Positions 7,960 through 25,015 of a stretch of DNA of 64,000 nucleotides are shown here, in pieces. Under the pieces are notes generated by a model, which was given only the letters and a program-made list of their open reading frames with translations, was not told where the DNA came from and ran no database searches. A program made the translations under genes and the position numbers. This DNA comes from an uncultured Pseudomonadota bacterium. Its GTDB lineage: Bacteria > Myxococcota_A > Polyangia > Fen-1088. Position 1 is the stretch's first letter. Each line of letters starts with the position of its first letter. The stretch lies in assembly GCA_963737345.1 (NCBI GenBank), contig CAVTSM010000003.1, forward strand, positions 2,099,171 through 2,163,170. Direction: 5' to 3'.

Positions 7960-9713
<1,754 letters not shown>

Positions 9714-12010: not shown

Positions 12011-13216
12011 TCAACCCTTCACGCAGAGAACCTGTTTCAGCTCGACGACCACTTCGACCAGGTCGGCCTGGTTCTTCATCACCTGATCGATGGGCTTGTA
12101 GGCGGCGGGGATCTCGTCGAGGACCCCGGCGTCCTTGCGGCAGCAGACACCCGCGGTCTGCGCGGCCAGATCCTCGACTGTGTAGGCGCGCTTGGCGGCG
12201 CCGCGTGACATCCGCCGTCCGGCGCCGTGCGACGCGCTCTGGAAGGACTCGGCATTGCCGAGGCCCCGCACCACGTAGCTCTGGGTCCCCATGGATCCGG
12301 GAATGATCCCCAGCTCGCCGGCGCCCGCGCGGATCGCCCCCTTGCGCGTGACGATCACCTCCTCACCGAAGTGAGTCTCCTCGGCGACGTAATTGTGATG
12401 ACAGAGGATGGGCGCCTCGTATGCGACCGGGCGCCCGAGGTGCGGTTCGACGACGCGCGCGAAGACGTCGCACAACAACTGGAACATCACGCGCCGATTC
12501 AAGAACGCATACCGCTGCGCCCAAAACAGGTCGTGGCGATAGGCGGCCATCTCGGGGGTGCCCGCCAGAAAGACGGCCAGGTCGCGATCCGGCAGCTCGG
12601 CGTTGTGCGCCAGCCGCTTGGCGGCGGCGATGTGCACCTCGGCCAGCTGCTTGCCGATGTTGCGCGACCCCGAGTGCAGCATCAGCCACACCCGGCCGTC
12701 GCTGCCCCGGCAGACCTCGATGAAATGGTTGCCACCGCCCAGCGTGCCGACCTGCCGTTTGGCCGTGCTCAGCCGATCGCGCACCTTCGGCGTGAGGTCG
12801 CGGAACTGGGTGAACAGCTGCAGGCCGTCGCGCGCGATCGCGTCGGGCATCCCATGCTTGAACACGGGCTCGTCGTGCGCGTTGAAGCCCACCGGAATGG
12901 CCCGCTCGACCGCGCTGCGCAGCGGACTCAGCGAATCGGGGAGCTCGTCCGCGCGCACCGACGTGCGGATGGCGCCCATCCCGCACCCGATGTCGACGCC
13001 CACGGCCGCGGGCGAAACGGCGCCGCGCATGGCGACGACCGAACCGACGGTGGCGCCCTTGCCGAAATGCACGTCCGGCATGGCGGCCACGTGATGGAAC
13101 ACCCACGGCAACGACGCCGTGCGCTTCAGCTGATCCAGCGCGGAGCTCTCGACCTCATGGACGGGCGCCCACACCTTGATCGGAACGTTCGCGCTGTGAA
13201 CGACGGAAGCCGGCAT
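12011..13216 (-). CDS. rtcB: RNA-splicing ligase RtcB
   Basis: HFGKGATVGSV...GGGNHFIEV...SASHGAGRRMSR motifs. 401 aa. Confidence 0.9.
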   Translation of the reverse strand: MPASVVHSANVPIKVWAPVHEVESSALDQLKRTASLPWVFHHVAAMPDVHFGKGATVGSVVAMRGAVSPAAVGVDIGCGMGAIRTSVRADELPDSLSPLRSAVERAIPVGFNAHDEPVFKHGMPDAIARDGLQLFTQFRDLTPKVRDRLSTAKRQVGTLGGGNHFIEVCRGSDGRVWLMLHSGSRNIGKQLAEVHIAAAKRLAHNAELPDRDLAVFLAGTPEMAAYRHDLFWAQRYAFLNRRVMFQLLCDVFARVVEPHLGRPVAYEAPILCHHNYVAEETHFGEEVIVTRKGAIRAGAGELGIIPGSMGTQSYVVRGLGNAESFQSASHGAGRRMSRGAAKRAYTVEDLAAQTAGVCCRKDAGVLDEIPAAYKPIDQVMKNQADLVEVVVELKQVLCVKG

Positions 13217-13275: not shown

Positions 13276-13725
13276 CTACGGCTTGGGCATGTTCTTGAAC
13301 ATCTCGTCCATCCGGCGCTTCATCTCGGGCATCGCCACGTCTTCCTTGTGGCTGGCGATGCTCCAGCGGTTGCCCCACTTGTCGGTCAAGATGCCGTAGC
13401 GGTCGCCCCAGAACTGATCCTCGAGCGGCATCGCGACCTGACAGCCCGCCGCCGTGGCCTGCTTCCACAGCGCATCCGCGTCGCTGACATAAAGATGCAG
13501 CGACGACTGCGTCGGCGGGCCCATCGTGGCGTCCGCGATCATCACGATCGAATCGCCGATCTTGATCTCGCTGTGCATGACCTTGCCGTCCGGTCCCTCC
13601 GCCACCGGGCGTTCCTCGGCGCCGAAGGCTTTCTTGTAAAAGGCGATCGCCTCACGCGCCCCGTTGACGCTCAGGTGCGGCGTGACCGTGTGGTACCCCT
13701 CGGGAACAGCCTTGATCTGTGCCAT
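13276..13725 (-). CDS. VOC/glyoxalase-family protein (PhnB-like)
   Basis: Start taken at internal ATG (MAQIKAVPEGYH) with strong RBS agggaggg. Followed 59 nt later by rtcB on the same strand. Confidence 0.7.
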   Translation of the reverse strand: MAQIKAVPEGYHTVTPHLSVNGAREAIAFYKKAFGAEERPVAEGPDGKVMHSEIKIGDSIVMIADATMGPPTQSSLHLYVSDADALWKQATAAGCQVAMPLEDQFWGDRYGILTDKWGNRWSIASHKEDVAMPEMKRRMDEMFKNMPKP

Positions 13726-13799
13726 CGCTACCCTCCCTTTCGCCGCTTTCATACCGACGATCGGGCTCCGTGGCCAGCGGGTGTTAACCTTGAGGGGTC

Positions 13800-14330
13800 A
13801 TGACGACGTTTCGGCTCGACCGGATGACCGCCGACGTCCGCAAGCTCACGCTCACCGTCTTGGCCCTGGGGGGCGCCTTCATCCTGCTGGCCAAGTCCGG
13901 CCCGCCCGCGATGCGCGCCCACATCGAGATCGGGGCGGCTGCCCTGGCGGCGGTCTGCGCGCTCACCTGGCTCGCCTTGCGCCCGACGCGGTTCATCGTC
14001 GACGAGAGCAGCTTGCGCATCGAATGGCCCATCCGCGTGCGCCTCATTCCGCGCTCCGTGATCGCCGGCGCGCGCCTGGTCAAGGCGGCGGATTTCCGGC
14101 GCGCGCACAAGCTGCGCGTGCGCGTGGGGGCCGGCGGGCTCTGGGGAACGTTCGGCCTCCTCAAGGGCGCCCGCGAAACCTACTCGACCTGGGTGTCACG
14201 GACCGATCGCTGGGTGGTGGTGCACTTGACGGACGGCAGCCATCCGCTGCTGCTGACCCCGGCCCATCCAGACCGTTTCGTGGCCGCGCTGGGCGCCCTG
14301 CCGGCCAACGTCGTCGACCTGCCCCTCTGA
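13800..14330 (+). CDS. Hypothetical membrane-anchored protein (PH-like/DUF)
   Basis: 176 aa with two N-terminal TM helices. No confident family. Confidence 0.45.
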   Translation: MTTFRLDRMTADVRKLTLTVLALGGAFILLAKSGPPAMRAHIEIGAAALAAVCALTWLALRPTRFIVDESSLRIEWPIRVRLIPRSVIAGARLVKAADFRRAHKLRVRVGAGGLWGTFGLLKGARETYSTWVSRTDRWVVVHLTDGSHPLLLTPAHPDRFVAALGALPANVVDLPL

Positions 14331-14349: not shown

Positions 14350-14967
14350 TCAGCGCCAGTCGTAGTTGAAGCTGATGCTGATGCGCTCGCCTGGGCCGCG
14401 CTGGGCGGCGACCTCGTGGCGCAGCCAGCTTTCGAACAGGATCACCTTGCCCGCCTCGACGTCGTACGAGATCTGCTGCTTGTTCTCGTCGCGGCTCTTC
14501 GCTCGCTTGGGGGGCGCGCCCATGAACTTGTCGAGGCGCGGGTCCTCGAACCGGATGCGCGACGAGCCGGGGGGCGTGCTCACGTAATAGGTCCCGCTGA
14601 TCACCGACAGCGGGTGCAGATGCAGCGCGTGCACGGCGTGCCGCGACATCATGTTCAGCCAGCAGTCGGTCATGGTCAGCTTCCCCTGGCCGAGGTCCAT
14701 GTCCAGCCGCCGCGCGAAGCGCATGACGTGCCGCCGGATCCGCTTTTCGAGGTCCATGAACGTCGAGAACGCACGGTGCAGGTTGGTCATCGACCCGTAG
14801 GACGTGTAGCCGGCCGGGTAGTTCTGCCGGCACCAGCGCGCCCCGGCCTTGTCGTGGGCGCGGATCTTCCGGCAGTCTTCGACAAGCGACCGCGCGAACG
14901 CGGCGTCGGCGCGCGGCAGCAGCGGGGCATCATAAATCAGCGTCGGGAACCAGGCGCGGGTCGGCAT
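14350..14967 (-). CDS. TIGR02466-type putative 2OG-Fe(II) oxygenase family protein
   Basis: Starts WFPTLIY and ends RISISFNYDWR, with LHLHP...SVISGTYYV in between. These are hallmarks of the ~200-aa TIGR02466/2OG-FeII_Oxy_5 family, identified from memory. The gene starts 7 nt after the radical-SAM stop. Confidence 0.55.
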   Translation of the reverse strand: MPTRAWFPTLIYDAPLLPRADAAFARSLVEDCRKIRAHDKAGARWCRQNYPAGYTSYGSMTNLHRAFSTFMDLEKRIRRHVMRFARRLDMDLGQGKLTMTDCWLNMMSRHAVHALHLHPLSVISGTYYVSTPPGSSRIRFEDPRLDKFMGAPPKRAKSRDENKQQISYDVEAGKVILFESWLRHEVAAQRGPGERISISFNYDWR

Positions 14968-14974
14968 CGGCCGC

Positions 14975-16900
14975 TCAATGTGCCGTCATTCGCAGCGCGT
15001 TCGCAATCAGGTCCGGCGGCACCGCCGGCGGCGGCACGCGGCGGCGGCCACGCGCGGGGTCAAACCAGGTCCGCACGTCCAGCTCCAGGCCGATGCCGTG
15101 CATGTAGTTGTAGAGAGCCTTGCGCAGCCCCTGCCCCAGCCGAGCGTGGTCAGTGCCCACCGGGTCCTCGAAGGGGACTTCGTTGCGCGCGAACGTCGAG
15201 GTCGGACGCAGCAGCCGGATGCCGTAACGTTCCGGCTGTGCGCCGATGGGGCTCCAGGCGGTGGCCGCAAAGCGGTGCCAGAACGCGGACTGGATGCACC
15301 CTTCGGCGAACAGCTGGCGCACGCGCTCGAGGGCGTCGACCGTCTCCTGCTCCGTCTCCGTCGGAAAGCCGTACATCAAGTACGCGTGCACCAGGATGCC
15401 GGCGTCGGTCAACGCGCGCGTCACGCGGGCGACCTGCGCGACCGTCACCCCCTTTTGCATGAGCGCCAGCAGCCGGTCCGACGCCACCTCCAGCCCGCCG
15501 GTGAGCGCGATGCACCCCGATCGCGCCAGCAGCCGCGCCAGCGCGGGCGTGAAGGTCTTTTCGAAGCGAATGTTCCCCCACCACGAGACGACGACCTGAC
15601 GCGCCAGCAATCTCTCGGCGATCGCCCGCAGCATGGCGGGGGGCGCCGCCTCGTCGACGAAGTGGAACCCGGTCTGCCCGGTCTCGGCCACCATCGCCGC
15701 GATCCGGTCGACGATCAGATCGGCCGACGCCGTCTCGTATCGAGCGATGTACGGCAGCGAGACGTCGCAGAACGTGCACTTCTTCCAGTAGCAGCCGCGC
15801 GCGACGGTCAGCTTGTTCCAGCGTCCGTCGGACCAGAGCCGGTGCACGGGGTTCAGCATCTCGAACAGCGACACGTACTGGTGAAGGGGCAGCCCGGCGT
15901 AGGTGGGCGTCCCGGCCTGCTCGTGCGAAACCTCGACGGCGGCCGGATCGGCCTTCAACACCACGCGGCCAGCTTCGCGGACGAAGGTGCGGTGCAACGG
16001 CACGGCGTCGCCGCGCAGGTGGCGGATCAGGTTCAGCAGCGGGCGCTCGCCGTCGTCGAGAGTCACGTAGTCGAAGTAGTCGAACACCCGCGGCTCGCGC
16101 AGCTCGCGCAGCTCTGTGTTGACGTACCCCCCGCCCAGCGCCAGGCGCACCGCCGGCCGCGCGCGGCGGATGGCCCGGGCCAGGCGAAAACCACCGTAGA
16201 CGTTGCCCGGGAACGGCGCGGTGACGCCCACCAGATCGGGCTCGTGCCGGCGCGCCAGCTCGGCGCCGATCTCGTCGGTCATCTGGTCGACCAGCGTGGG
16301 CGGACCTTCCAGCGCCGCGCGCAACGGCTCGAAGCTGGTCGCGCTGACGGCCAGCCGCTCGCCGTAGCGCGCCAGCTCGAAGCGCGCGTCGATGCCGTCG
16401 CGGATGACGTCGGCCAGATCGTCGACGTAGAGGCTCGCGACGTGCTTGGCCCGGTCGGCGATCCCCAGCGCCCCGAAGGCCCAGCCGAGCGGCCCCTCCG
16501 ACTCGTCACCCGCCAGCGGCGCGAACCGCGGCCCCTCGGGCAGGAAGGTCCGCGCGGCGATCCGCGACGCCAGGTTCGGATCGCGCCCCTGCAAGAACGC
16601 GATCACGCTCTCGACGGTCTCCAGGTAACGGTCCGGGTTGTCGAGGAACGCCGCCACCGACGGGCCCATGGCCCGCCGCGCGGCCGGCTTGGCGGACGCG
16701 ATCGCTTCGCGCACGCGCGCCAGCCCAGGGCGCGAGAAGAGGCCCAAGAACAGCTCCAGCGCGGGATCGGCCTGCGCCAGGTCCAGCTCCAGCGTGGCGG
16801 CGTGCTGGCGCAAAAATCCGGTCAGGTAGGCCGTCGCCGGGTACGGCGTGTTCAGCTGCACCATCGGCGGCGTCACCAGCAGGACGCGCATACCCGTCAT
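14975..16900 (-). CDS. B12-binding-domain radical SAM protein (Cx4Cx2C variant)
   Basis: N-terminal B12-binding-like Rossmann domain (MRVLLVTPPMVQLNTPYP...), then GCYWKKCTFCDVS and an Elp3/TIM-barrel-like region. Start taken at the ATG that forms an ATGA overlap with the DnaJ-like stop (16897-16900). The track ORF extends into an R/G-rich artefact. Confidence 0.8.
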   Translation of the reverse strand: MTGMRVLLVTPPMVQLNTPYPATAYLTGFLRQHAATLELDLAQADPALELFLGLFSRPGLARVREAIASAKPAARRAMGPSVAAFLDNPDRYLETVESVIAFLQGRDPNLASRIAARTFLPEGPRFAPLAGDESEGPLGWAFGALGIADRAKHVASLYVDDLADVIRDGIDARFELARYGERLAVSATSFEPLRAALEGPPTLVDQMTDEIGAELARRHEPDLVGVTAPFPGNVYGGFRLARAIRRARPAVRLALGGGYVNTELRELREPRVFDYFDYVTLDDGERPLLNLIRHLRGDAVPLHRTFVREAGRVVLKADPAAVEVSHEQAGTPTYAGLPLHQYVSLFEMLNPVHRLWSDGRWNKLTVARGCYWKKCTFCDVSLPYIARYETASADLIVDRIAAMVAETGQTGFHFVDEAAPPAMLRAIAERLLARQVVVSWWGNIRFEKTFTPALARLLARSGCIALTGGLEVASDRLLALMQKGVTVAQVARVTRALTDAGILVHAYLMYGFPTETEQETVDALERVRQLFAEGCIQSAFWHRFAATAWSPIGAQPERYGIRLLRPTSTFARNEVPFEDPVGTDHARLGQGLRKALYNYMHGIGLELDVRTWFDPARGRRRVPPPAVPPDLIANALRMTAH

Positions 16901-17568
16901 ACGGCGACGCGGATCCGGGCCCGCTGCTGCGCGACGCCCGCCTTGCGCAGATTGGCCGTGATCAGCATGCCGTCGCGGGCCGCGCGCGGGATCGGCACCA
17001 CCACCGGCACGCTGTCGGTCACCGTCCCGGCGTGCTCGCAGCGGATGCACCAGACGCCGCGCGGGCTAGCGACCCCGCCGCAGGTCGGGCACAGGATCCG
17101 CATGCGCATCTCGACGACCGCGGATCCACCGACCGCCGCCTCCGCCGCGCTGAGGGACAGCTCCAGCACGCCATCGGCGGTCAGCCGCGCCACGCCGTCG
17201 GCCTGCAAGCGATCGAGCGGACCGCTCACGCGCGGCAAGACGTTGGGGATCGGCTTTTCCCAGCTCGCCGTCCAGCCGCTGTTCGACACCGTCCAGGCGT
17301 TGGCGTTTCCCCGGACCGCTCCCGGCGCGAAGGCCCCCTGGGATTCGCGCTGCAGCAGATGCGCGTCGTAGGCGGTGCGCGCCGTCGGATCCGACAGCAT
17401 CCGATAGGCCTCGGCGATGCGCCCGAACGTCTCGGCGCTGGCGGCGCCGGCTCGGTCGGGGTGATGTTGCAGCGCCAGCTTGCGGTAGGCGCGCCGGATC
17501 TCCGCGCCGCTGGCTGAGCGGGAAACGCCCAGCAGCACGTAAAGGTCGACGGAGGGCGGCGCGCGCAC
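16897..17568 (-). CDS. J-domain protein with C-terminal CxxC...CxxC zinc finger
   Basis: DLYVLLGVSRSASGAEIRRAYRKLALQHHPDR (HPD motif) and ...CPTCGG...CIRCEHAG. GTG start. Confidence 0.7.
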   Translation of the reverse strand: MRAPPSVDLYVLLGVSRSASGAEIRRAYRKLALQHHPDRAGAASAETFGRIAEAYRMLSDPTARTAYDAHLLQRESQGAFAPGAVRGNANAWTVSNSGWTASWEKPIPNVLPRVSGPLDRLQADGVARLTADGVLELSLSAAEAAVGGSAVVEMRMRILCPTCGGVASPRGVWCIRCEHAGTVTDSVPVVVPIPRAARDGMLITANLRKAGVAQQRARIRVAV

Positions 17569-17591
17569 GGGCGAAGCTTAACTCGCCCTCG

Positions 17592-18464
17592 TCACGGCGC
17601 GCGGCCCACGATGCGGATCAGGTGCTCGGCGGCGCGGGTGCGACGCTGCTCGGCCGCGGCGCGCCATGCGGCGGCGCCGTGCTCGATGTTGCCCAGGTAG
17701 TAGCGAAGACCCAGGCCCAGGCCCAGCAGGGCCGCCTCGGCGACCGCCCCGTCGGCCAGCAGGAAGGCCACGCCGACGCCGAACCCGCCGTTCACCAACA
17801 GCGCCAGCGCGCCGTCCGCCGCCCGCCCCGCGGTGGCCTGCCCCAAACCGGGAACAACCGCCGACAGCACACCGCCCCAGATGGCCCTGTGGCGCGGCTG
17901 AATCTGCAGGGTGTCGATCAGCTCGTCCGCCCGTCCGTCGCGGGGTGCCGCGCCTGCCGGCAGCGCGGCCACGCAGGCGCGCGCGGCCGCCGCGTCCAGA
18001 GCCAACACCTCGGCCACGCAGCGCAGCCGCCCGGCGACCGCGCGCGTCTCCTCGTCGACGCCGAACTCCTCGACCCGGCTGAAGAGGTGCAACGCGTGTG
18101 GGTACGCGCGGGCGCGCAGCAGCACCACCCCGGCTGCCAGCTGCCACTCGTCGCTGCGCGCCGGGTCTTCGACGGCGGCGGCCGCGTCGTTCAGGAACGG
18201 CGCGGCCTGCTCGGGCTGACCGTCCAGCGCCAGCGCCATACCGACGTCGTAAGCGGTCTGCGCCGCGATCGCCTCCGGCCCCCCTTCTGCGGTGAGGCGC
18301 CCGGCTTCCCACCCGGCCTCGCGACTGAGCCCCAGGCGCAGCAACGTGGCCACGAAATCGGGGGCGGCGATAGGCCGAGCCGGCTCGGCAGCCATCGCCC
18401 GGCCGCCCGACAGGGCCCCGAGCGCAAGCAGCGCGCTAAGGATCCAGGCGCCGTTCGTACGCAC
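17592..18464 (-). CDS. Secreted hypothetical protein, paralog B (TM2-like C-terminal module)
   Basis: Signal peptide MRTNGAWILSALLALGALSGGRAMA. C-terminus SAVVPGLGQATAGRAADGALALLVNGGFGVGVAFLL...LGLRYYLGNIEHG is shared with the upstream paralog. Confidence 0.5.
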   Translation of the reverse strand: MRTNGAWILSALLALGALSGGRAMAAEPARPIAAPDFVATLLRLGLSREAGWEAGRLTAEGGPEAIAAQTAYDVGMALALDGQPEQAAPFLNDAAAAVEDPARSDEWQLAAGVVLLRARAYPHALHLFSRVEEFGVDEETRAVAGRLRCVAEVLALDAAAARACVAALPAGAAPRDGRADELIDTLQIQPRHRAIWGGVLSAVVPGLGQATAGRAADGALALLVNGGFGVGVAFLLADGAVAEAALLGLGLGLRYYLGNIEHGAAAWRAAAEQRRTRAAEHLIRIVGRAP

Positions 18465-19320
18465 GATCGATCTCCTGCATCAGCGCGTCCTCGGCGTCGC
18501 GCCGCTGCACGATGGCGCCCACCGCGGAGCCGTAGACGTTTCCCACGTACAAAAGCGCGGCCACGCTCCCCAGGATCCACCCGCGAACCGAGGCGCGCCC
18601 CTCGTCGTAGAAGCCCTGGGCCGCGAGGGCGCCGGTGACCCCAATCAGGACGAAGCTCATGACGCCGTCGGCGACCCGGCCGATGTAGACGCGCCCCAGG
18701 CCCGGGATCACGGCCGACAGGGCCCCGGCCAACCAGGGAGACTTGCGCGGCAACGCCTGGTAGCGGCCGATCAGCTCTTCGTCCTGTTGCTGCCAGATCC
18801 CCGGCAGGCCGGCCGCAGACGGGGCGGCCGTCAGCTGGCGCGCCTCCGCCCAGCGCCGCGCCCGGATGACCCGCATCCGCAACGTCGCGCGCGCAAGCTG
18901 GTCGTCGGGCGAGGGAGACTGCGTCGGCTCCAGCGCCGGACAGGCGGGCGCCGCCAGGTCGGACAGGAACACCTCGGTCAGGCAGAGGCGCAGACGGGTG
19001 CGCGGGCCCAGCGGCGTTCCTTCGCCGGGAAGCGCCAGCACCAGTCGCCGCGCGTCGTCGAAGCGGCCGGCCAGCGACAGGCAAAGGGCGGCGCGATCGA
19101 ACCCGCGCTCGCGCTGGCTCGGGTGCTGGTAGGCGTATCGCAACGCCTCGACGGCGCAAGCCTCGAAGCTGCCCAGGTTGCGCAGACGCTCGGCGAGCTC
19201 CAAGAATGAGGGCGCCTCCACAGGCGCCTGCGCAGCCGCGCGCCGCATCCCGCAAAACGGCGACGCCAGGGCCATCCCGATCACCAACGGCAAGGTCCAC
19301 CTGCGCACGCGCGCGCTCAC
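18436..19320 (-). CDS. Secreted hypothetical protein, paralog A (TPR-like plus the same C-terminal PGLG membrane module)
   Basis: Start taken at GTG (complement 19318-19320), which forms a GTGA overlap with the YidD-like stop: SARVRRWTLPLVIGMALASPF... C-terminus ALSAVIPGLGRVYIGRVADGVMSFVLIGVTGALAAQGFYDEG...LLYVGNVYGS. The track ORF runs to 20067 in an R/S-rich artefact. Confidence 0.5.
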   Translation of the reverse strand: MSARVRRWTLPLVIGMALASPFCGMRRAAAQAPVEAPSFLELAERLRNLGSFEACAVEALRYAYQHPSQRERGFDRAALCLSLAGRFDDARRLVLALPGEGTPLGPRTRLRLCLTEVFLSDLAAPACPALEPTQSPSPDDQLARATLRMRVIRARRWAEARQLTAAPSAAGLPGIWQQQDEELIGRYQALPRKSPWLAGALSAVIPGLGRVYIGRVADGVMSFVLIGVTGALAAQGFYDEGRASVRGWILGSVAALLYVGNVYGSAVGAIVQRRDAEDALMQEIDRAYERRLDP

Positions 19321-19766
19321 TCGGCCCGCATCAGGCAATAGCGGGCTGGGTCGTCGCGCAAGAGCCGTCCGCCCTCGGCGCGCGGGTAATACGGCACGGC
19401 CAGCGGGTGATCGCGCAGCAGGCGATCCAGCGTCAGCAACACGCCCTGAAACAGCCCGCAGTGCCCGATCGCGGCCTGCGAGAACCGCGAGCACGACGGC
19501 GTGAAGACACAGCCGCCCGCGTCCTGCGACGACAGCATCAGATGGTACGTGCCGAACAGCGCCCGCGTGACCCCGCTGCCCAGCGCCCCGTCCCAGGGGC
19601 GCGCCCCGGCCTCCGCCTGCGGGGCGGTCTCCGATCCGGCCAGCAGGTACGCGACGGCCTGCTCCGGCTTCCACAGCTCGGGAACCTCCGCCGCGGCTCC
19701 CGCGGCGCGCGCGCCCCCGCCGCCGGCCAGCGCGGCGGCGAACGTGGTTATCAACAATCCCCGCAT
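19317..19766 (-). CDS. YidD-like (membrane protein insertion efficiency factor / haemolytic-domain) protein with N-terminal signal and linker
   Basis: FGTYHLMLSSQDAGGCVFTPSCSRFSQAAIGHCGLFQGVLLTLDRLLRDHP matches the YidD core (CxF.P.CS.Y...A....G...G..L...R..RCHP). Start at internal ATG (MRGLLITTFAAALAG). Confidence 0.55.
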   Translation of the reverse strand: MRGLLITTFAAALAGGGGARAAGAAAEVPELWKPEQAVAYLLAGSETAPQAEAGARPWDGALGSGVTRALFGTYHLMLSSQDAGGCVFTPSCSRFSQAAIGHCGLFQGVLLTLDRLLRDHPLAVPYYPRAEGGRLLRDDPARYCLMRAE

Positions 19767-20509
19767 CACCAAGAGAGGGGCTGGATTTTCGTCTGCGGGC
19801 CCAGCTTCGCGCAACCGATCGTTCCCTTCTGCGGATCGAAGCGGGCGATCCGATCGAGGGTCCATTGCTCCTCGCGCTGCCGGGCGCCGCCCGACGCGTA
19901 GTAGTCCGCGACGACCGTGCGCGGGACCGTGCGAATGCCGACCCGGACGCGTTCGCCGAATGCGAACCGGCGCTGCGGCTGCCCCTTGGCGTCGACCAGC
20001 TCGATCGAGCGCGCACCCTGACGGGTCTCGACGGCGTGCAGCTCGCCCAGTTCTTTTCCGCCGCCATCGACGACCCGCCAGCGCGTCAGCAGCTCGCCGT
20101 TGGCCCGCTTGCGGTCCAGCAGCTTCGACCCCGCGGGGAGCGTGCTGGCCGGATCGACCAATCCGGCCGCCAGCGCGTCCAGCATGGGCGGCGGCTGCGG
20201 CGGCAACACTCGCGCGACGAACGCCAGGTCGCGATCCGGGTAGTAAATGACCAGCTCGCGCGGCGACAGGTGCATCTCCTGCAGGCGCGGCGACTTCACG
20301 GCCACGCAGATCTCGCCGCCGGGGATGAAGCTCAAGGAACCGGAGACGGTCTCGGTGCCGGCGGCGTCGACGGTCTTCAGAACGAAGTCCGCCGCCAGGG
20401 AGACGGATCCCGTCGCGGCGGCGGGCGGCGGATCGACCTTGGCAGGCGCCGGGACCAGCGTCGCGGCCAGAGCAGCGGCCAGAGCAGCGGCGACGGTGGC
20501 GGTCAGCAC
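19766..20509 (-). CDS. Secreted hypothetical protein (LolA-like fold suspected)
   Basis: GTG start. Signal peptide MLTATVAAALAAALAATLVPAPA, then a ~200-aa beta-rich domain. Family call is weak. Confidence 0.45.
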   Translation of the reverse strand: MLTATVAAALAAALAATLVPAPAKVDPPPAAATGSVSLAADFVLKTVDAAGTETVSGSLSFIPGGEICVAVKSPRLQEMHLSPRELVIYYPDRDLAFVARVLPPQPPPMLDALAAGLVDPASTLPAGSKLLDRKRANGELLTRWRVVDGGGKELGELHAVETRQGARSIELVDAKGQPQRRFAFGERVRVGIRTVPRTVVADYYASGGARQREEQWTLDRIARFDPQKGTIGCAKLGPQTKIQPLSW

Positions 20510-20513
20510 CCGC

Positions 20514-21053
20514 TCACGGGCTCGTGATGAGCGCGGTCGTCCCGGTCGTGTACGTCGGTTCGCTCTTCACGATGGCGACGATGATGATGATGTAGATGAC
20601 GACCACCACCGCCACGGCCGTCGCCGTGCCCCAGATCGCCGCGCGCCCCTGGATCGATCGCGCCTCGGACTTGTAGGCCGTCGTGTAGATCGCCAGGTAC
20701 TCCGGCGATTTCCCCATGAGGCGCGCCGGCGGCGGCGTGGCCTCCGCGACGTAGGCGATGACGATGCCGATGACACCCAGCAGACAGCCGGCAAAGAACC
20801 ACAGGGTGCCGTTGGTGTCGGCGCGGGCGTCGTTCGTCGCCTCGGCCGTCGCGCGGCCCGCATCTACCGGCTGTGGCGCGTAGTAGGGCTGGCCAGCGTA
20901 GCCGGGCGGCGGCCCATAGCCCTGCGCCGGCGCCGGGCCCCAGCCCTGCTGGGCCATCGCGGGCCGCTGCATCATCGGCAGAAGGATCATCGCGGCCGAA
21001 ACGATCGCCACGACCAGAGTCGAACTCAGCCACCTTCCGGAACCAATCCTCAT
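20514..21053 (-). CDS. Hypothetical membrane protein (Pro/Gly/Tyr-rich region plus two TM helices)
   Basis: ATG with RBS gagagga. QGYGPPPGYAGQPYYAPQ low-complexity region. C-terminal helix VVVVIYIIIIVAIV. First gene of the minus-strand operon. Confidence 0.5.
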   Translation of the reverse strand: MRIGSGRWLSSTLVVAIVSAAMILLPMMQRPAMAQQGWGPAPAQGYGPPPGYAGQPYYAPQPVDAGRATAEATNDARADTNGTLWFFAGCLLGVIGIVIAYVAEATPPPARLMGKSPEYLAIYTTAYKSEARSIQGRAAIWGTATAVAVVVVIYIIIIVAIVKSEPTYTTGTTALITSP

Positions 21054-21221
21054 CGTTTCCTCTCGCAGGCAAAGCCCGCTTCAGGAGGGGGAACAGCCTG
21101 TGCGCCTCGTCTCTTGTACATGAGACGCTCGAGTTCGGTCAACATCCCTGAGCTTCGATCCTGTATCGCCCGGCGCACTCGATGACTCAAGGCTTTCCCG
21201 AGTTCCGCGATATGCAGGGGA

Positions 21222-22285: not shown

Positions 22286-22396
22286 CCGCGAAGCAACGGT
22301 TGTGAATTTGACGCGCGTGTGAGGGAGCGGGCCGCGCGGCTCGCACGCGCTGGGATTTCGTCGCGCGGCGTTTCGTTTCCGAATGGAGAGACAGTC

Positions 22397-25015
22397 ATGA
22401 ACAAAGGGACAGTATTGGTCTTGCTGGTGGTGGTGCTGGGAGGGGGCTATGGCCTTGGCCGGCTGGCGACCCGCGACAAGAGCGGCTCGCCCGGCGGCGC
22501 CGCTACGGCGGCGACGGGCGGCTCGACCGCGGGCGACGGTGTCGACCGCGTGCGCGTGCCGCTGGATGGGCCCATGAAGGGCCCGGCGAACGCCAAGGTG
22601 ACGATCGTCGAGTTCTCCGACTTCCAGTGCCCCTTCTGCGGCCGCGTCATGCCGACTTTGCAGCAGATCGAGAAGAACTACGGCAATGACGTGCGCACCG
22701 TGTTCATCCACAACCCCCTTCCCTTCCACCCCAACGCCGAGCCGGCCGCCGAGGCGGCCATCGCCGCCGAGGCGCAGGGGAAGTTCTGGCAGATGCACGA
22801 CAAGCTGTTCGCGAACCAGCAGAACCTGACCCGGCCCGACCTGGAGAAGTACGCCCAGGAGATCGGCCTGGACATGAACAAGTTCAAGGCGGCGCTGGAC
22901 TCGCATTCCGGCAAGAAGAAGATCGATGCGGACCTGGCCGTCGCCAAGCAGGTGGGCGTCCAGGGAACGCCGAACTTCTACATCGACGGCCGCAACGTGC
23001 AGGGCGCGCAGCCGTACGAAGAGTTCAAGAAGGTCATCGACGACGAGATCCAGCGCGCCAACAAGCTGATCGCGCAGGGAACGCCGGCCAACCAGGTCTA
23101 CACGGCGTTCATGAAGGGCGCGAAGACGGCGGCGCAAGCGCAGGCCCAGGCCGCCAAGGGCCCCGGCGCCGGCACCGAGGTCTACAAGGTCGCCGTGGGC
23201 GACGCCCCGACCCGCGGCAGCAAGCAGCCGAAGGTGACGATCGTCGAGTACTCGGACTTCCAGTGCCCGTACTGCAGCCGCGCCGCCGCCACGCTGGACA
23301 CGCTGATGAAGGACTACGCCAGCGACGTCCAGCTGGCCTACAAGCACAACCCGCTGCCGTTCCACCAGCAGGCCATGCCGGCCGCGCTGGCCGCCGAGGC
23401 CGCGCGCGAGCAGGGCAAGTTCTGGGAGATGCACGACAAGATGTTCAAGAACCAGACGAGCCTGCAGCGCGCTGACCTCGACAAGTACGCGCAGGAAGTC
23501 GGCCTGGACATGGGCAAGTACAAAGAGGCGATGGAGAAGGAAAAGGGGAAGGACCGCATCAAGAGCGACATGGCCGAGGCCGAGAAGTTCGGCGCGCGCG
23601 GCACCCCCAACTTCTTCATCAACGGCCACAACTTCCGGGGCGCCCAGCCAATCGAGGCCTTCAAGGCCGTCGTCGACGAGGAGATCAAGAAGGCCGACGC
23701 CAAGATCGCCTCGGGCACGCCGCGCGGGCAGGTCTACGCCGCGCTGACGCAAGGCGGTCTCGACAAGGCGGCCGCGCCGCCGCCACCCAAGGCCAACCCG
23801 GGCGAGCCCGACGCCAACGTGCGCTACCGCGCCGAGATCAAGGGCGCGCCGGTGAAGGGCGCCAAGGATGCGCCGGTCACGATCGTGCAGTGGTCGGACT
23901 ACCAGTGCCCGTTCTGCAGCCGCGTCGAGCCGACCATCAACAAGGTGATGGACGACTACAAGGGCAAGGTGCGCGTGGCGTGGCGCGACCTGCCGCTGCC
24001 GTTCCACCCCAACGCGATGCCCTCGGCGATCGCGGCCCGCGCCGCCGGCGAGCAGGGGAAGTACTGGGAGATGCACGACAAGCTGTTCGCCGATCAGCAG
24101 CACGAGGATCGCGCGACGTTCGAGAAGTACGCGCAGGAGCTGGGCCTCAACATGGCCAAATTCAAGGCGGCGCTGGACGCGCAGAAGGGCAAAGAGGCCA
24201 TCGAGGCGGACGCGGCGGCCGGCGGGAAGATCGGCGCGCGCGGCACGCCGGCCTTCTTCGTCAACGGGAAGTTCCTCTCGGGCGCGCAGCCCTACGAGGT
24301 GTTCAAGGCCAAGATCGACGAGGAGCTGAAGAACGCCGACGGGCTGATCGCCAAGGGGACGCCGAAATCCAAGGTCTATGACGCCCTGATGAAGGACGCC
24401 AAGACCGAGGTGGCGGCCGCCCCGGCGCAGGCCGCACAAGGCGCCGAGAAGACGCCCGAGCAGGACGACACCGTCTTCAAGGTGGCCGCCGGCAACGCGC
24501 CGGCCAAGGGCAGCAAGAACGCCCCGCTGCAGGTGGTCATCTTCTCGGACTTCCAGTGCCCGTTCTGCAAGCGCGTCGAGCCGACGCTGACGCAGATGGA
24601 GAAGGAGTACGGCGGCAAGGTGCACATGGCGTGGAAGAACTACCCACTTCCGTTCCACCAGAACGCCGAGCCGGCGGCCGAGGCGGCCATGGCGGCCAAC
24701 GCCCAGGGCAAGTTCTGGCAGATGCACGACAAGCTGTTCGAGAACAACACGGCGCTCGATCGCCCCAGCCTCGAGAAGTACGCGCAGGAGCTGGGCCTCG
24801 ACATGGCCAAGTTCAAGGCGGACCTGGACGCGCAGAAGTACAAGGACTCGATCGCGGCCGACACCAAGGAAGGCCAGGCGGTCGGCGTGAACGGTACCCC
24901 GGCGGTGTTCATCAACGGGCGCAAGATCAGCGGCGCCTACCCCTGGGAGACGTTCAAGAAGATCGCCGACGACGAACTGGCGAAGAAGCAGGGCAAGCTC
25001 GCCAAGAAGGGGTAG
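22397..25015 (+). CDS. Tetra-domain DsbA-like thiol:disulfide oxidoreductase (four tandem thioredoxin-fold domains in one polypeptide)
   Basis: ATG 22397 after ggagagacagtc. Signal/TM MNKGTVLVLLVVVLGGG. Four about-213-aa repeats, each with F/W-SD-F/Y-QCP(F/Y)C...NPLPFH...QGKFW.MHDKLF...GTP.FFING; CxxC motifs near nt 22628, 23267, 23909 and 24559. Confidence 0.85.
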   Translation: MNKGTVLVLLVVVLGGGYGLGRLATRDKSGSPGGAATAATGGSTAGDGVDRVRVPLDGPMKGPANAKVTIVEFSDFQCPFCGRVMPTLQQIEKNYGNDVRTVFIHNPLPFHPNAEPAAEAAIAAEAQGKFWQMHDKLFANQQNLTRPDLEKYAQEIGLDMNKFKAALDSHSGKKKIDADLAVAKQVGVQGTPNFYIDGRNVQGAQPYEEFKKVIDDEIQRANKLIAQGTPANQVYTAFMKGAKTAAQAQAQAAKGPGAGTEVYKVAVGDAPTRGSKQPKVTIVEYSDFQCPYCSRAAATLDTLMKDYASDVQLAYKHNPLPFHQQAMPAALAAEAAREQGKFWEMHDKMFKNQTSLQRADLDKYAQEVGLDMGKYKEAMEKEKGKDRIKSDMAEAEKFGARGTPNFFINGHNFRGAQPIEAFKAVVDEEIKKADAKIASGTPRGQVYAALTQGGLDKAAAPPPPKANPGEPDANVRYRAEIKGAPVKGAKDAPVTIVQWSDYQCPFCSRVEPTINKVMDDYKGKVRVAWRDLPLPFHPNAMPSAIAARAAGEQGKYWEMHDKLFADQQHEDRATFEKYAQELGLNMAKFKAALDAQKGKEAIEADAAAGGKIGARGTPAFFVNGKFLSGAQPYEVFKAKIDEELKNADGLIAKGTPKSKVYDALMKDAKTEVAAAPAQAAQGAEKTPEQDDTVFKVAAGNAPAKGSKNAPLQVVIFSDFQCPFCKRVEPTLTQMEKEYGGKVHMAWKNYPLPFHQNAEPAAEAAMAANAQGKFWQMHDKLFENNTALDRPSLEKYAQELGLDMAKFKADLDAQKYKDSIAADTKEGQAVGVNGTPAVFINGRKISGAYPWETFKKIADDELAKKQGKLAKKG
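22600..25015 (+). repeat. Four imperfect tandem DNA repeats of about 640-650 bp encoding the DsbA domains
   Basis: Periodic recurrence of tcggacttccagtgcccgt(t/a)ctgc... and ..ggcaagttctggcagatgcacgacaagctgttc.. blocks. The antisense ORFs in the track are mutually similar. Confidence 0.7.

Follow-up and report, generated by a model that had tools for sequence, protein, structure and literature searches.

Do the eight tightly packed genes at one locus of an uncultured Polyangia bacterium form a single pathway, or do they belong to two gene sets that have come to lie side by side? The genes occupy positions 14350-21053 of the window, the whole stretch of DNA analyzed here (64,000 nucleotides (nt) of contig CAVTSM010000003.1, positions 2,099,171 to 2,163,170), which has a GC content of about 70% and is part of a metagenome-assembled genome assigned to Polyangia; close relatives of its proteins are also named Polyangia. 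In the window's list of open reading frames (ORFs) these are eight co-oriented minus-strand ORFs, g1 to g8 from upstream to downstream. The first five encode a small membrane protein, a LolA-fold protein, a YidD-like protein and two paralogs, A and B, with TPR-like domains and membrane hairpins; the last three encode a J-domain protein, a radical SAM (rSAM) enzyme and an oxygenase-like protein of the TIGR02466 family. A preliminary description of the locus had taken all eight for one candidate maturation system. We found loci with g1-g5 but not g6-g8 and loci with g6-g8 but not g1-g5, and it is probable that the locus consists of two independent cassettes, A (g1-g5, 17592-21053) and B (g6-g8, 14350-17568), that abut only in one Polyangia lineage. 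An eight-gene maturation pathway would then be a tempting false lead suggested by tight packing, which comparative genomics splits in two. Two better-defined problems take its place: an exported set of YidD-like, TPR-hairpin and LolA-fold proteins, and an orphan rSAM enzyme with a Cx4Cx2C cluster motif.

Conservation of the two gene sets

We compared all eight window proteins, by tblastn and iterated hidden Markov model (HMM) searches, with 86 loci seeded on the rSAM enzyme. Cassette A lies next to the rSAM gene in only four of these (L001, L004, L005 and L008). The J-protein gene and the TIGR02466 gene are each present in seven, and the rSAM gene stands alone in about 75. Three loci (L007, L010 and L031) carry a gene for a 148-residue protein that also flanks the run of genes in the window, followed by the J-protein, rSAM and oxygenase genes without g1-g5. 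The rSAM identities of these three loci (84%, 74% and 70%, respectively) interleave with those of loci that have cassette A (82% in L004 and 72% in L005), which argues that the linkage has repeatedly been lost or gained. The short intergenic region of L007 matches two places in the window, the left end of the spacer that separates the 148-residue gene from g1 and the g5-g6 spacer, marking cassette A as a discrete insertion or deletion; such an event between the 148-residue gene and g6 would have made the cassettes neighbors in one Polyangia clade. The four loci with the full set also share unrelated flanks with the window, a DsbA-repeat protein gene and the 148-residue gene, so their eight-gene synteny reflects close relatedness. 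Conserved gene order in relatives had been proposed as a check on the single-system idea, and the linkage is not kept beyond close relatives.

Cassette A was followed separately by a metagenome scan from g4, which gave 80 loci; 81 g4-seeded loci were counted. In 62 of the 81 the g4-like gene is immediately preceded by a YidD-like gene; 28 have a g2-like gene and 17 a g1-like one. Homologs of g6 (10 loci) and g8 (4 loci) are confined to close Polyangia relatives, and none of the distant g4-seeded loci has a g6, g7 or g8 homolog. One locus whose g4 homolog is 52% identical (L087) has genes for the membrane protein, the LolA-like protein, the YidD-like protein, A and B in window order amid unrelated surroundings and without g6-g8, and a JGI contig (g4 identity 60%) likewise has g1-g5 in window order, unrelated surroundings and no g6-g8. 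All five genes, again in window order and with overlapping junctions, are present in a locus of 38% GC (L130), and a locus from Ignavibacteriaceae (L166) holds a three-gene core made of the YidD-like gene and the A/B pair. HMM hits to g4 and g5 near the rSAM gene in L018 and L058 were considered as further instances of cassette A and rejected as generic long TPR proteins.

Gene junctions and transcription signals

The packing reported in the preliminary description agrees with the coordinates and the sequence. The g1 stop codon is separated by 4 nt from the g2 GTG; g2 and g3 overlap by 1 nt in TGATG (19764-19768), g3 and g4 share a GTGA (19317-19320), and g4 and g5 overlap by 29 nt (18436-18464). 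A 23-nt gap follows between g5 and g6, then an ATGA overlap between g6 and g7 (16897-16900) and a 7-nt gap between g7 and g8 (14968-14974). The 29-nt overlap recurs in L001 (8433-8461), in L004 (8337-8365) and in the JGI contig, and is replaced by a 3-nt gap in L087. Each of the eight products has many homologs, which identifies all eight ORFs as real genes. Rfam and tRNA scans of the window gave no match.

A consensus scan for promoters and terminators returned no promoter and only chance-level terminators. Cross-locus comparison points to a candidate sigma-70-type promoter for cassette A (21113-21142, minus strand), with TTGACC, an 18-nt spacer and TACAAG, some 60 nt ahead of the g1 ATG; the consensus scan, which demands a T at position 6, did not pick it up. 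This element is kept as TTGAC[CTG]-N18-TACAA[AG] while the surrounding sequence diverges (L001, L004, L005, L008, L090, L091, L093, L096, L097, L098, L100, L102 and L103), and it lies inside the cassette-specific segment that is absent from L007.

Cassette B has a candidate promoter element of its own, a -10-like hexamer (TAAGCT, 17575-17580, minus strand) 6 nt upstream of the g6 GTG. In 19 of the 19 loci that carry g6, a hexamer of the form TAnnnT (TAAGCT, TAGACT, TAACAT or TAGAAT) ends 6-7 nt before the g6 GTG or ATG, and it is kept both where cassette A lies upstream (for example the window, L001, L004 and L005) and where it does not (L007, L010 and L031). No Shine-Dalgarno sequence is found upstream of g6 in these 19 loci. 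Since the spacing between hexamer and start codon suits transcription starting at the start codon itself, these features suggest that g6-g8 are transcribed separately from g1-g5, probably as a leaderless mRNA that begins at the g6 start codon.

Cassette A proteins

Consistent with the earlier description of g1-g5 as envelope-targeted, all five products have N-terminal signal or anchor segments. In a hydropathy scan g1, g2, g4 and g5 showed N-terminal hydrophobic segments and g6-g8 showed none; the segment of g3 is too short for that scan and was read from its sequence and from the clear signal peptides of its low-GC homologs. All eight genes discussed here and below lie on the minus strand. 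The first gene of cassette A, g1 (20514-21053), encodes a small membrane protein of 179 residues with an N-terminal signal or anchor, a linker rich in Pro, Gly, Tyr and Gln, and two transmembrane helices (hydrophobic segments at residues 9-27, 84-102 and 144-162). In L130 the cassette begins with a g1 homolog (8552-8902) that shares the core LW..GGCLLG..G...AYV.EP..P.AR..GK.P.Y. Pfam and NCBIfam scans gave no family match for g1, g2 or g5.

The product of g2 (19766-20509; 247 residues) is predicted to be exported. It had been called LolA-like, a label that sequence comparison does not support but fold comparison does. Its AlphaFold model has a predicted local distance difference test (pLDDT) score of 81, and a Foldseek search of PDB with this model returned LolA-superfamily structures at E values from 1e-9 to 1e-7 and probability 1.0, including 3buu (E 1.7e-9); further matches were Porphyromonas gingivalis LolA3 (9tp6), LolB (9tpm, TMq 0.61) and E. 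coli LolA (7z6w). The g2 homolog in L130 scores 22.1 bits against Pfam LolA, just below the cut-off of 23.6. The next gene, g3 (19317-19766), encodes a YidD-like protein of 149 residues with an N-terminal signal-like segment, and is predicted to be exported. It reaches 43.4 bits against Pfam YidD (cut-off 27) and falls marginally below the cut-off of the NCBIfam equivalog TIGR00278 (39.1 bits against 40).

Paralog A, encoded by g4 (18436-19320; 294 residues), combines a signal peptide, a TPR-like periplasmic domain and a C-terminal two-helix membrane hairpin, and paralog B, encoded by g5 (17592-18464; 290 residues), the last gene of the cassette, has a g4-like architecture. In a structural model of g4 (pLDDT 85) an all-helical TPR-like domain is followed by a long helical hairpin; a fold search of PDB with this model gave only generic TPR matches with E values above 0.1 and no specific match. 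The hairpin motif reads PGLGRVYIG ... GNVYGS, with PGLG and GNVYGS invariant in the alignment. Four cysteines of g4 (C55, C80, C113 and C127) are invariant across 16 homologs with identities down to 48%, which suggests two structural disulfides. The paralogy of g4 and g5 through their C-terminal module, proposed earlier, holds in BLASTP (E 3e-9, 44% identity over 50 residues of the hairpin), and it is also supported by the A/B pair kept in L087 and in the distant loci L130 and L166. The hairpin had also been likened to TM2: the motif is present, but the score of g4 against Pfam TM2 is sub-threshold (13.7 bits, cut-off 27.9), g5 has no TM2 hit, and neither protein hits DUF5683 in the Pfam scan. 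Low-GC homologs of B exceed the threshold for TPR_2 (28.8 bits, cut-off 27) and remain sub-threshold for DUF5683 (19.4 bits).

A search with the hairpin module returned 2579 representative proteins at E values of 1e-3 or below, most of them with the length and architecture of g4. Several hits (P0393, P0429, P0444, P0458 and P0467) are single polypeptides of 413-726 residues in which a YidD domain is joined to TPR repeats and to one or two hairpins of DUF5683 type, and their hairpins reach Pfam DUF5683 at 31-33.5 bits (cut-off 26.7). As the fused relatives pass that cut-off and the window proteins do not, the window hairpins are best regarded as distant relatives of DUF5683 and TM2. The existence of such fusions, together with the conserved adjacency of the separate genes, supports the idea that YidD-like and hairpin proteins work together.

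We propose that cassette A is an old envelope operon that is widely distributed and has a promoter of its own, and that its products would form an inner-membrane-anchored periplasmic complex for hydrophobic or lipidated cargo in envelope biogenesis. In such a complex the LolA fold of g2 would hold acyl or other hydrophobic groups and the TPR domains of g4 and g5 would serve as scaffolds. The association of the parts is evident from the loci and fusions described above, whereas cargo and activity are what we infer. A more ambitious version of this proposal is that cassette A constitutes an unrecognized multi-phylum periplasmic machine, in which an exported YidD paralog, TPR/hairpin holders and a LolA-fold carrier insert or traffic hydrophobic cargo; we offer it tentatively, as it is more probably wrong than right. 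We found no description of an exported YidD cassette in the literature searched, and a search on LolA3 likewise gave no functional lead.

Upstream of the cassette, on the plus strand, lies a gene (22319-25015) for a secreted protein of 898 residues; it consists of DsbA/thioredoxin-like repeats, and every repeat carries CPFC or CPYC. This DsbA-repeat gene is a conserved upstream neighbor in relatives, with an AhpC/Redoxin gene beyond it (L001, L004 and L005). The putative disulfides of g4 fit the adjacent DsbA-repeat gene only loosely.

Cassette B proteins

The products of g6-g8 are predicted to be cytoplasmic: a J-domain co-chaperone, an orphan rSAM enzyme and a TIGR02466 oxygenase-like protein would make up cassette B. 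Family scans, together with an alignment of 14 rSAM orthologs, bear out the earlier assignments of the J domain with its CxxC motif, of TIGR02466, of YidD and of a radical SAM domain with Cx4Cx2C spacing. The first gene, g6 (16897-17568), encodes a truncated DnaJ-like protein of 223 residues that scores 73.3 bits against Pfam DnaJ (PF00226) and contains the HPD motif (HHPDRA). Against DnaJ_bact it reaches 101 bits (cut-off 377) and covers profile positions 1-174 of 354. Its only four cysteines (160, 163, 174 and 177) form CxxC...CxxC, one four-Cys zinc center. Only this Polyangia clade has the J-protein.

The rSAM gene, g7 (14975-16900), encodes a B12-binding-type enzyme of 641 residues. The preliminary description had called it a B12-binding radical SAM enzyme, and the two halves of that label fared differently: g7 passes the cut-off for Radical_SAM (PF04055; 49.2 bits, cut-off 29.5) and stays below that for B12-binding (PF02310; 26.3 bits, cut-off 32.1). 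Its relatives carry the NCBI name B12-binding and precomputed PF02310 hits. DUF4070, which had also been suggested, was not found by the family scans. The cluster motif GCYWKKCTFC has Cx4Cx2C spacing, and C370, C375 and C378 are invariant in the 14 orthologs. A search of PDB sequences with the g7 profile gave no match. Scores fall below the cut-off of every named NCBIfam rSAM equivalog, including HpnJ (39 bits against 578), HpnR (17 against 650), BchE (55 against 481), BzaD, PhpK and RiPP (ribosomally synthesized and post-translationally modified peptide) methyltransferases; the best is TIGR03975 (101 against 282). The JGI COG label would make g7 an ortholog of YgiQ, which we rejected because hhalign gives a probability of 24% and aligns the cluster loop only.

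The last gene, g8 (14350-14967), encodes 205 residues of a TIGR02466 / 2OG-FeII_Oxy_5 oxygenase-like protein, with 213.7 bits against TIGR02466 (cut-off 62.5; profile positions 2-200 of 201) and 107.3 bits against PF13759 2OG-FeII_Oxy_5 (cut-off 27). A g8 homolog adjoins the rSAM gene in L001, L005, L007, L010 and L031, and does so independently in the distant locus L070 (41% identity), an adjacency that hints at a real link between the rSAM enzyme and the oxygenase. Against such a link, the oxygenase gene of L004 has been displaced to a position about 3 kb downstream of the rSAM gene, and in L008 none was found within 1.4 kb downstream.

Downstream of g8 lie a bacterial PH-domain membrane protein gene (13800-14330, plus strand) convergent with g8, a glyoxalase/VOC protein gene (13276-13752, minus strand) and a gene of the RtcB RNA ligase family (12011-13216, minus strand). 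These three are also kept in the closest relatives (L001, L004 and L007) as part of the general synteny.

Distribution and neighbors of the rSAM family

The rSAM family is very large, with 8000 of the 8000 scored candidates at E values of 1e-20 or below. A scan using one genome per species found orthologs with 57-70% identity in at least 592 species, with hosts among Myxococcota, Bdellovibrionota, Betaproteobacteria and Gammaproteobacteria; carriers include cultured strains of Limnobacter, Paludibacterium (P. yongneupense DSM 18731) and Pseudogulbenkiania (P. subflava DSM 22618). Judged by these comparisons, it is a highly conserved, near single-lineage family present in hundreds of species.

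Elsewhere its only recurrent neighbors are RluE- or RluF-like genes. Among the 68 loci whose flanks are long enough, 23 have such a gene within tens of nucleotides of the rSAM gene, and 26 loci in all have one as a neighbor. RluE and RluF are pseudouridine synthases that act on 23S rRNA. In Gammaproteobacteria an RluE-like gene (232 bits, cut-off 284) is co-directional and 3-31 nt downstream; in Myxococcota an RluF-like gene (316 bits, cut-off 318) is mostly upstream and divergent. Loci with such a gene downstream are L027, L033, L035, L039, L042, L044, L050, L052, L054 and L062, and those with one upstream are L002, L006, L011, L013, L020, L022-L026 and L046. On the strength of these neighbors we suggest, with low to moderate confidence, that g7 has a housekeeping role in ribosome or RNA modification rather than in tailoring the secreted paralogs. 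As cited in one article (PMC13602947), Ishiguro et al. 2026 describe RlmX, a cobalamin-dependent rSAM enzyme of E. coli that C-methylates riboses in the peptidyl-transferase center. Our searches did not find the E. coli gene that encodes RlmX, and we leave orthology between g7 and RlmX unassigned. An RNA or ribosome role for g7 would be directly testable in tractable organisms.

Alternative explanations

Several observations weigh against two independent cassettes or against the roles proposed for them. No terminator was found when the 23-nt spacer between g5 and g6 was scanned, so transcription from the cassette A promoter is likely to continue into g6-g8, and co-expression of all eight genes is quite possible in the window's organism. 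Both the g1 and the g6 promoter are proposed from conservation alone. The junction between the cassettes is still found in relatives whose rSAM identity is as low as about 69-72% (L005, L091, L102 and L103), and the absence of cassette A from L007, L010 and L031 was scored at this site only. Our functional proposals draw on fold and neighborhood. For the rSAM enzyme, neighbor clustering of the Betaproteobacteria loci gave no consistent partner and no RluE/RluF link, and the link seen elsewhere may represent only two or three independent events.

Some of these points would fit a history in which the cassettes had separate origins and were then recruited, without a shared substrate, into a supra-operon under joint control of the g1 promoter, as might happen in response to envelope stress or oxygen stress. 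The short spacer without a terminator, the retention of the A-B junction over moderate divergence and the thiol-redox envelope neighbors (the DsbA-repeat protein and AhpC/Redoxin) speak for such recruitment. However, sister loci that interleave with the linked ones in rSAM identity (L007, L010 and L031) are without cassette A at the site, and loci with cassette A upstream keep the -10-like element of g6 all the same. We therefore regard recruitment into one regulatory unit as unlikely.

A good deal less probable is the single pathway, in which the rSAM enzyme, the oxygenase and the J-protein would tailor a substrate before export, perhaps one of the paralogs, and the envelope proteins would then handle it. 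Its appeal lies in the uniform orientation, the tight or overlapping junctions and the gene order kept in L001, L004, L005, L008, L090, L091, L102 and L103. No known pathway explains the gene set, a point on which the preliminary description was right, as all named rSAM equivalogs score far below cut-off. Against these stands the separate occurrence of the two halves in close and distant genomes: the rSAM enzyme is 57-70% identical across the species counted above without g1-g6 nearby, and cassette A is found across phyla, also as fusion proteins, with no rSAM gene nearby. An insertion sequence element (rve, HTH_Tnp_1) and a PIN/RHH toxin-antitoxin pair separate the rSAM and TIGR02466 genes in L004 (11975-14874), and a promoter-like element precedes g6. 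There is also no conserved small ORF that resembles a precursor. The one candidate considered, a 31-residue ORF (MLTELERLMYKRRGAQAVPPPEAGFACERKR; 21054-21149, minus strand) whose end overlaps the g1 start in an ATGA, is not conserved in L001, L004, L005 or L008 and is thus probably a chance ORF.

That g7, with g8, tailors a RiPP or another natural product can be dismissed as scarcely credible: the best NCBIfam similarities of g7 are indeed to TIGR03975, a RiPP rSAM C-methyltransferase family (101 bits), and to P-methyltransferases of the PhpK type, but the respective cut-offs, 282 and 600 bits, are much higher than the scores, the search for a precursor ORF gave no conserved candidate, the loci hold no biosynthetic, transporter or protease partners, and such high cross-phylum conservation is atypical for secondary metabolism.

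Comparison with known systems

Two independent cassettes thus being the probable composition of the locus, each can be set beside the families it resembles. In cassette B, g8 is a full-length member of TIGR02466 / PF13759 with no sequence-level difference from the family. We know of no substrate for TIGR02466 proteins, and in the literature searched the family is mentioned only in a cyanophage genome paper, which gives no functional lead. The product of g6 shares with DnaJ/Hsp40, HscB and CbpA a J domain with HPD, and has a CxxC zinc motif; it differs from DnaJ in having one zinc center instead of two and no C-terminal substrate-binding domains, and in being translationally coupled to a radical SAM gene. 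Like class B (cobalamin-binding) rSAM enzymes, g7 has an N-terminal domain of Rossmann type ahead of its radical SAM core, whereas its Cx4Cx2C motif departs from the canonical CxxxCxxC; in the hhalign alignment the cluster motif has one extra residue relative to YgiQ. The RluE/RluF neighborhood suggests an RNA or ribosome substrate, in which g7 would resemble RlmX, RlmN and Cfr.

In cassette A, the hairpins of g4 and g5 share the motif S..[IV]PG.G..Y.G with DUF5683 (PF18935) and TM2 (PF05154), and JGI labels relatives 'TM2 domain-containing membrane protein YozV'. They differ in scoring below the thresholds of both families, in having a signal peptide and a TPR domain in addition, and in their conserved arrangement as an A/B pair that follows a YidD-like gene. 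The predicted fold of g2, an open beta-barrel with an internal helix, places it in the LolA superfamily beside LolA and LolB. It differs from LolA in having no significant sequence match, in being about 60 residues larger than the matched E. coli and P. aeruginosa LolA chains, and in its place in a YidD-like/TPR-hairpin cassette rather than with lolCDE; no lol genes are present in the cassette. One of its structural matches, P. gingivalis LolA3, is itself a LolA paralog whose role is not known (PMC13103446).

The product of g3 has the YidD domain (PF01809 / TIGR00278) with its C..PSCS core. E. coli YidD is a small membrane protein insertion efficiency factor of the cytoplasmic face, encoded in rnpA-yidD-yidC. 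By comparison, g3 has roughly double the length and bears a signal-like segment at its N terminus, its RCHP motif reads RDHP, its neighbors are LolA-fold and TPR/hairpin genes and not rnpA or yidC, and g3-type domains are fused to TPR/hairpin modules in some organisms. Given that YidD is poorly understood and is believed to work at the cytoplasmic face, a YidD paralog system in the periplasm could give a new angle on envelope biogenesis. If cassette A is the machine tentatively suggested above, it would provide a route for hydrophobic cargo (lipoproteins, lipids or segments of membrane proteins, for instance) that operates from the periplasmic side and is distinct from both YidC/YidD and Lol.

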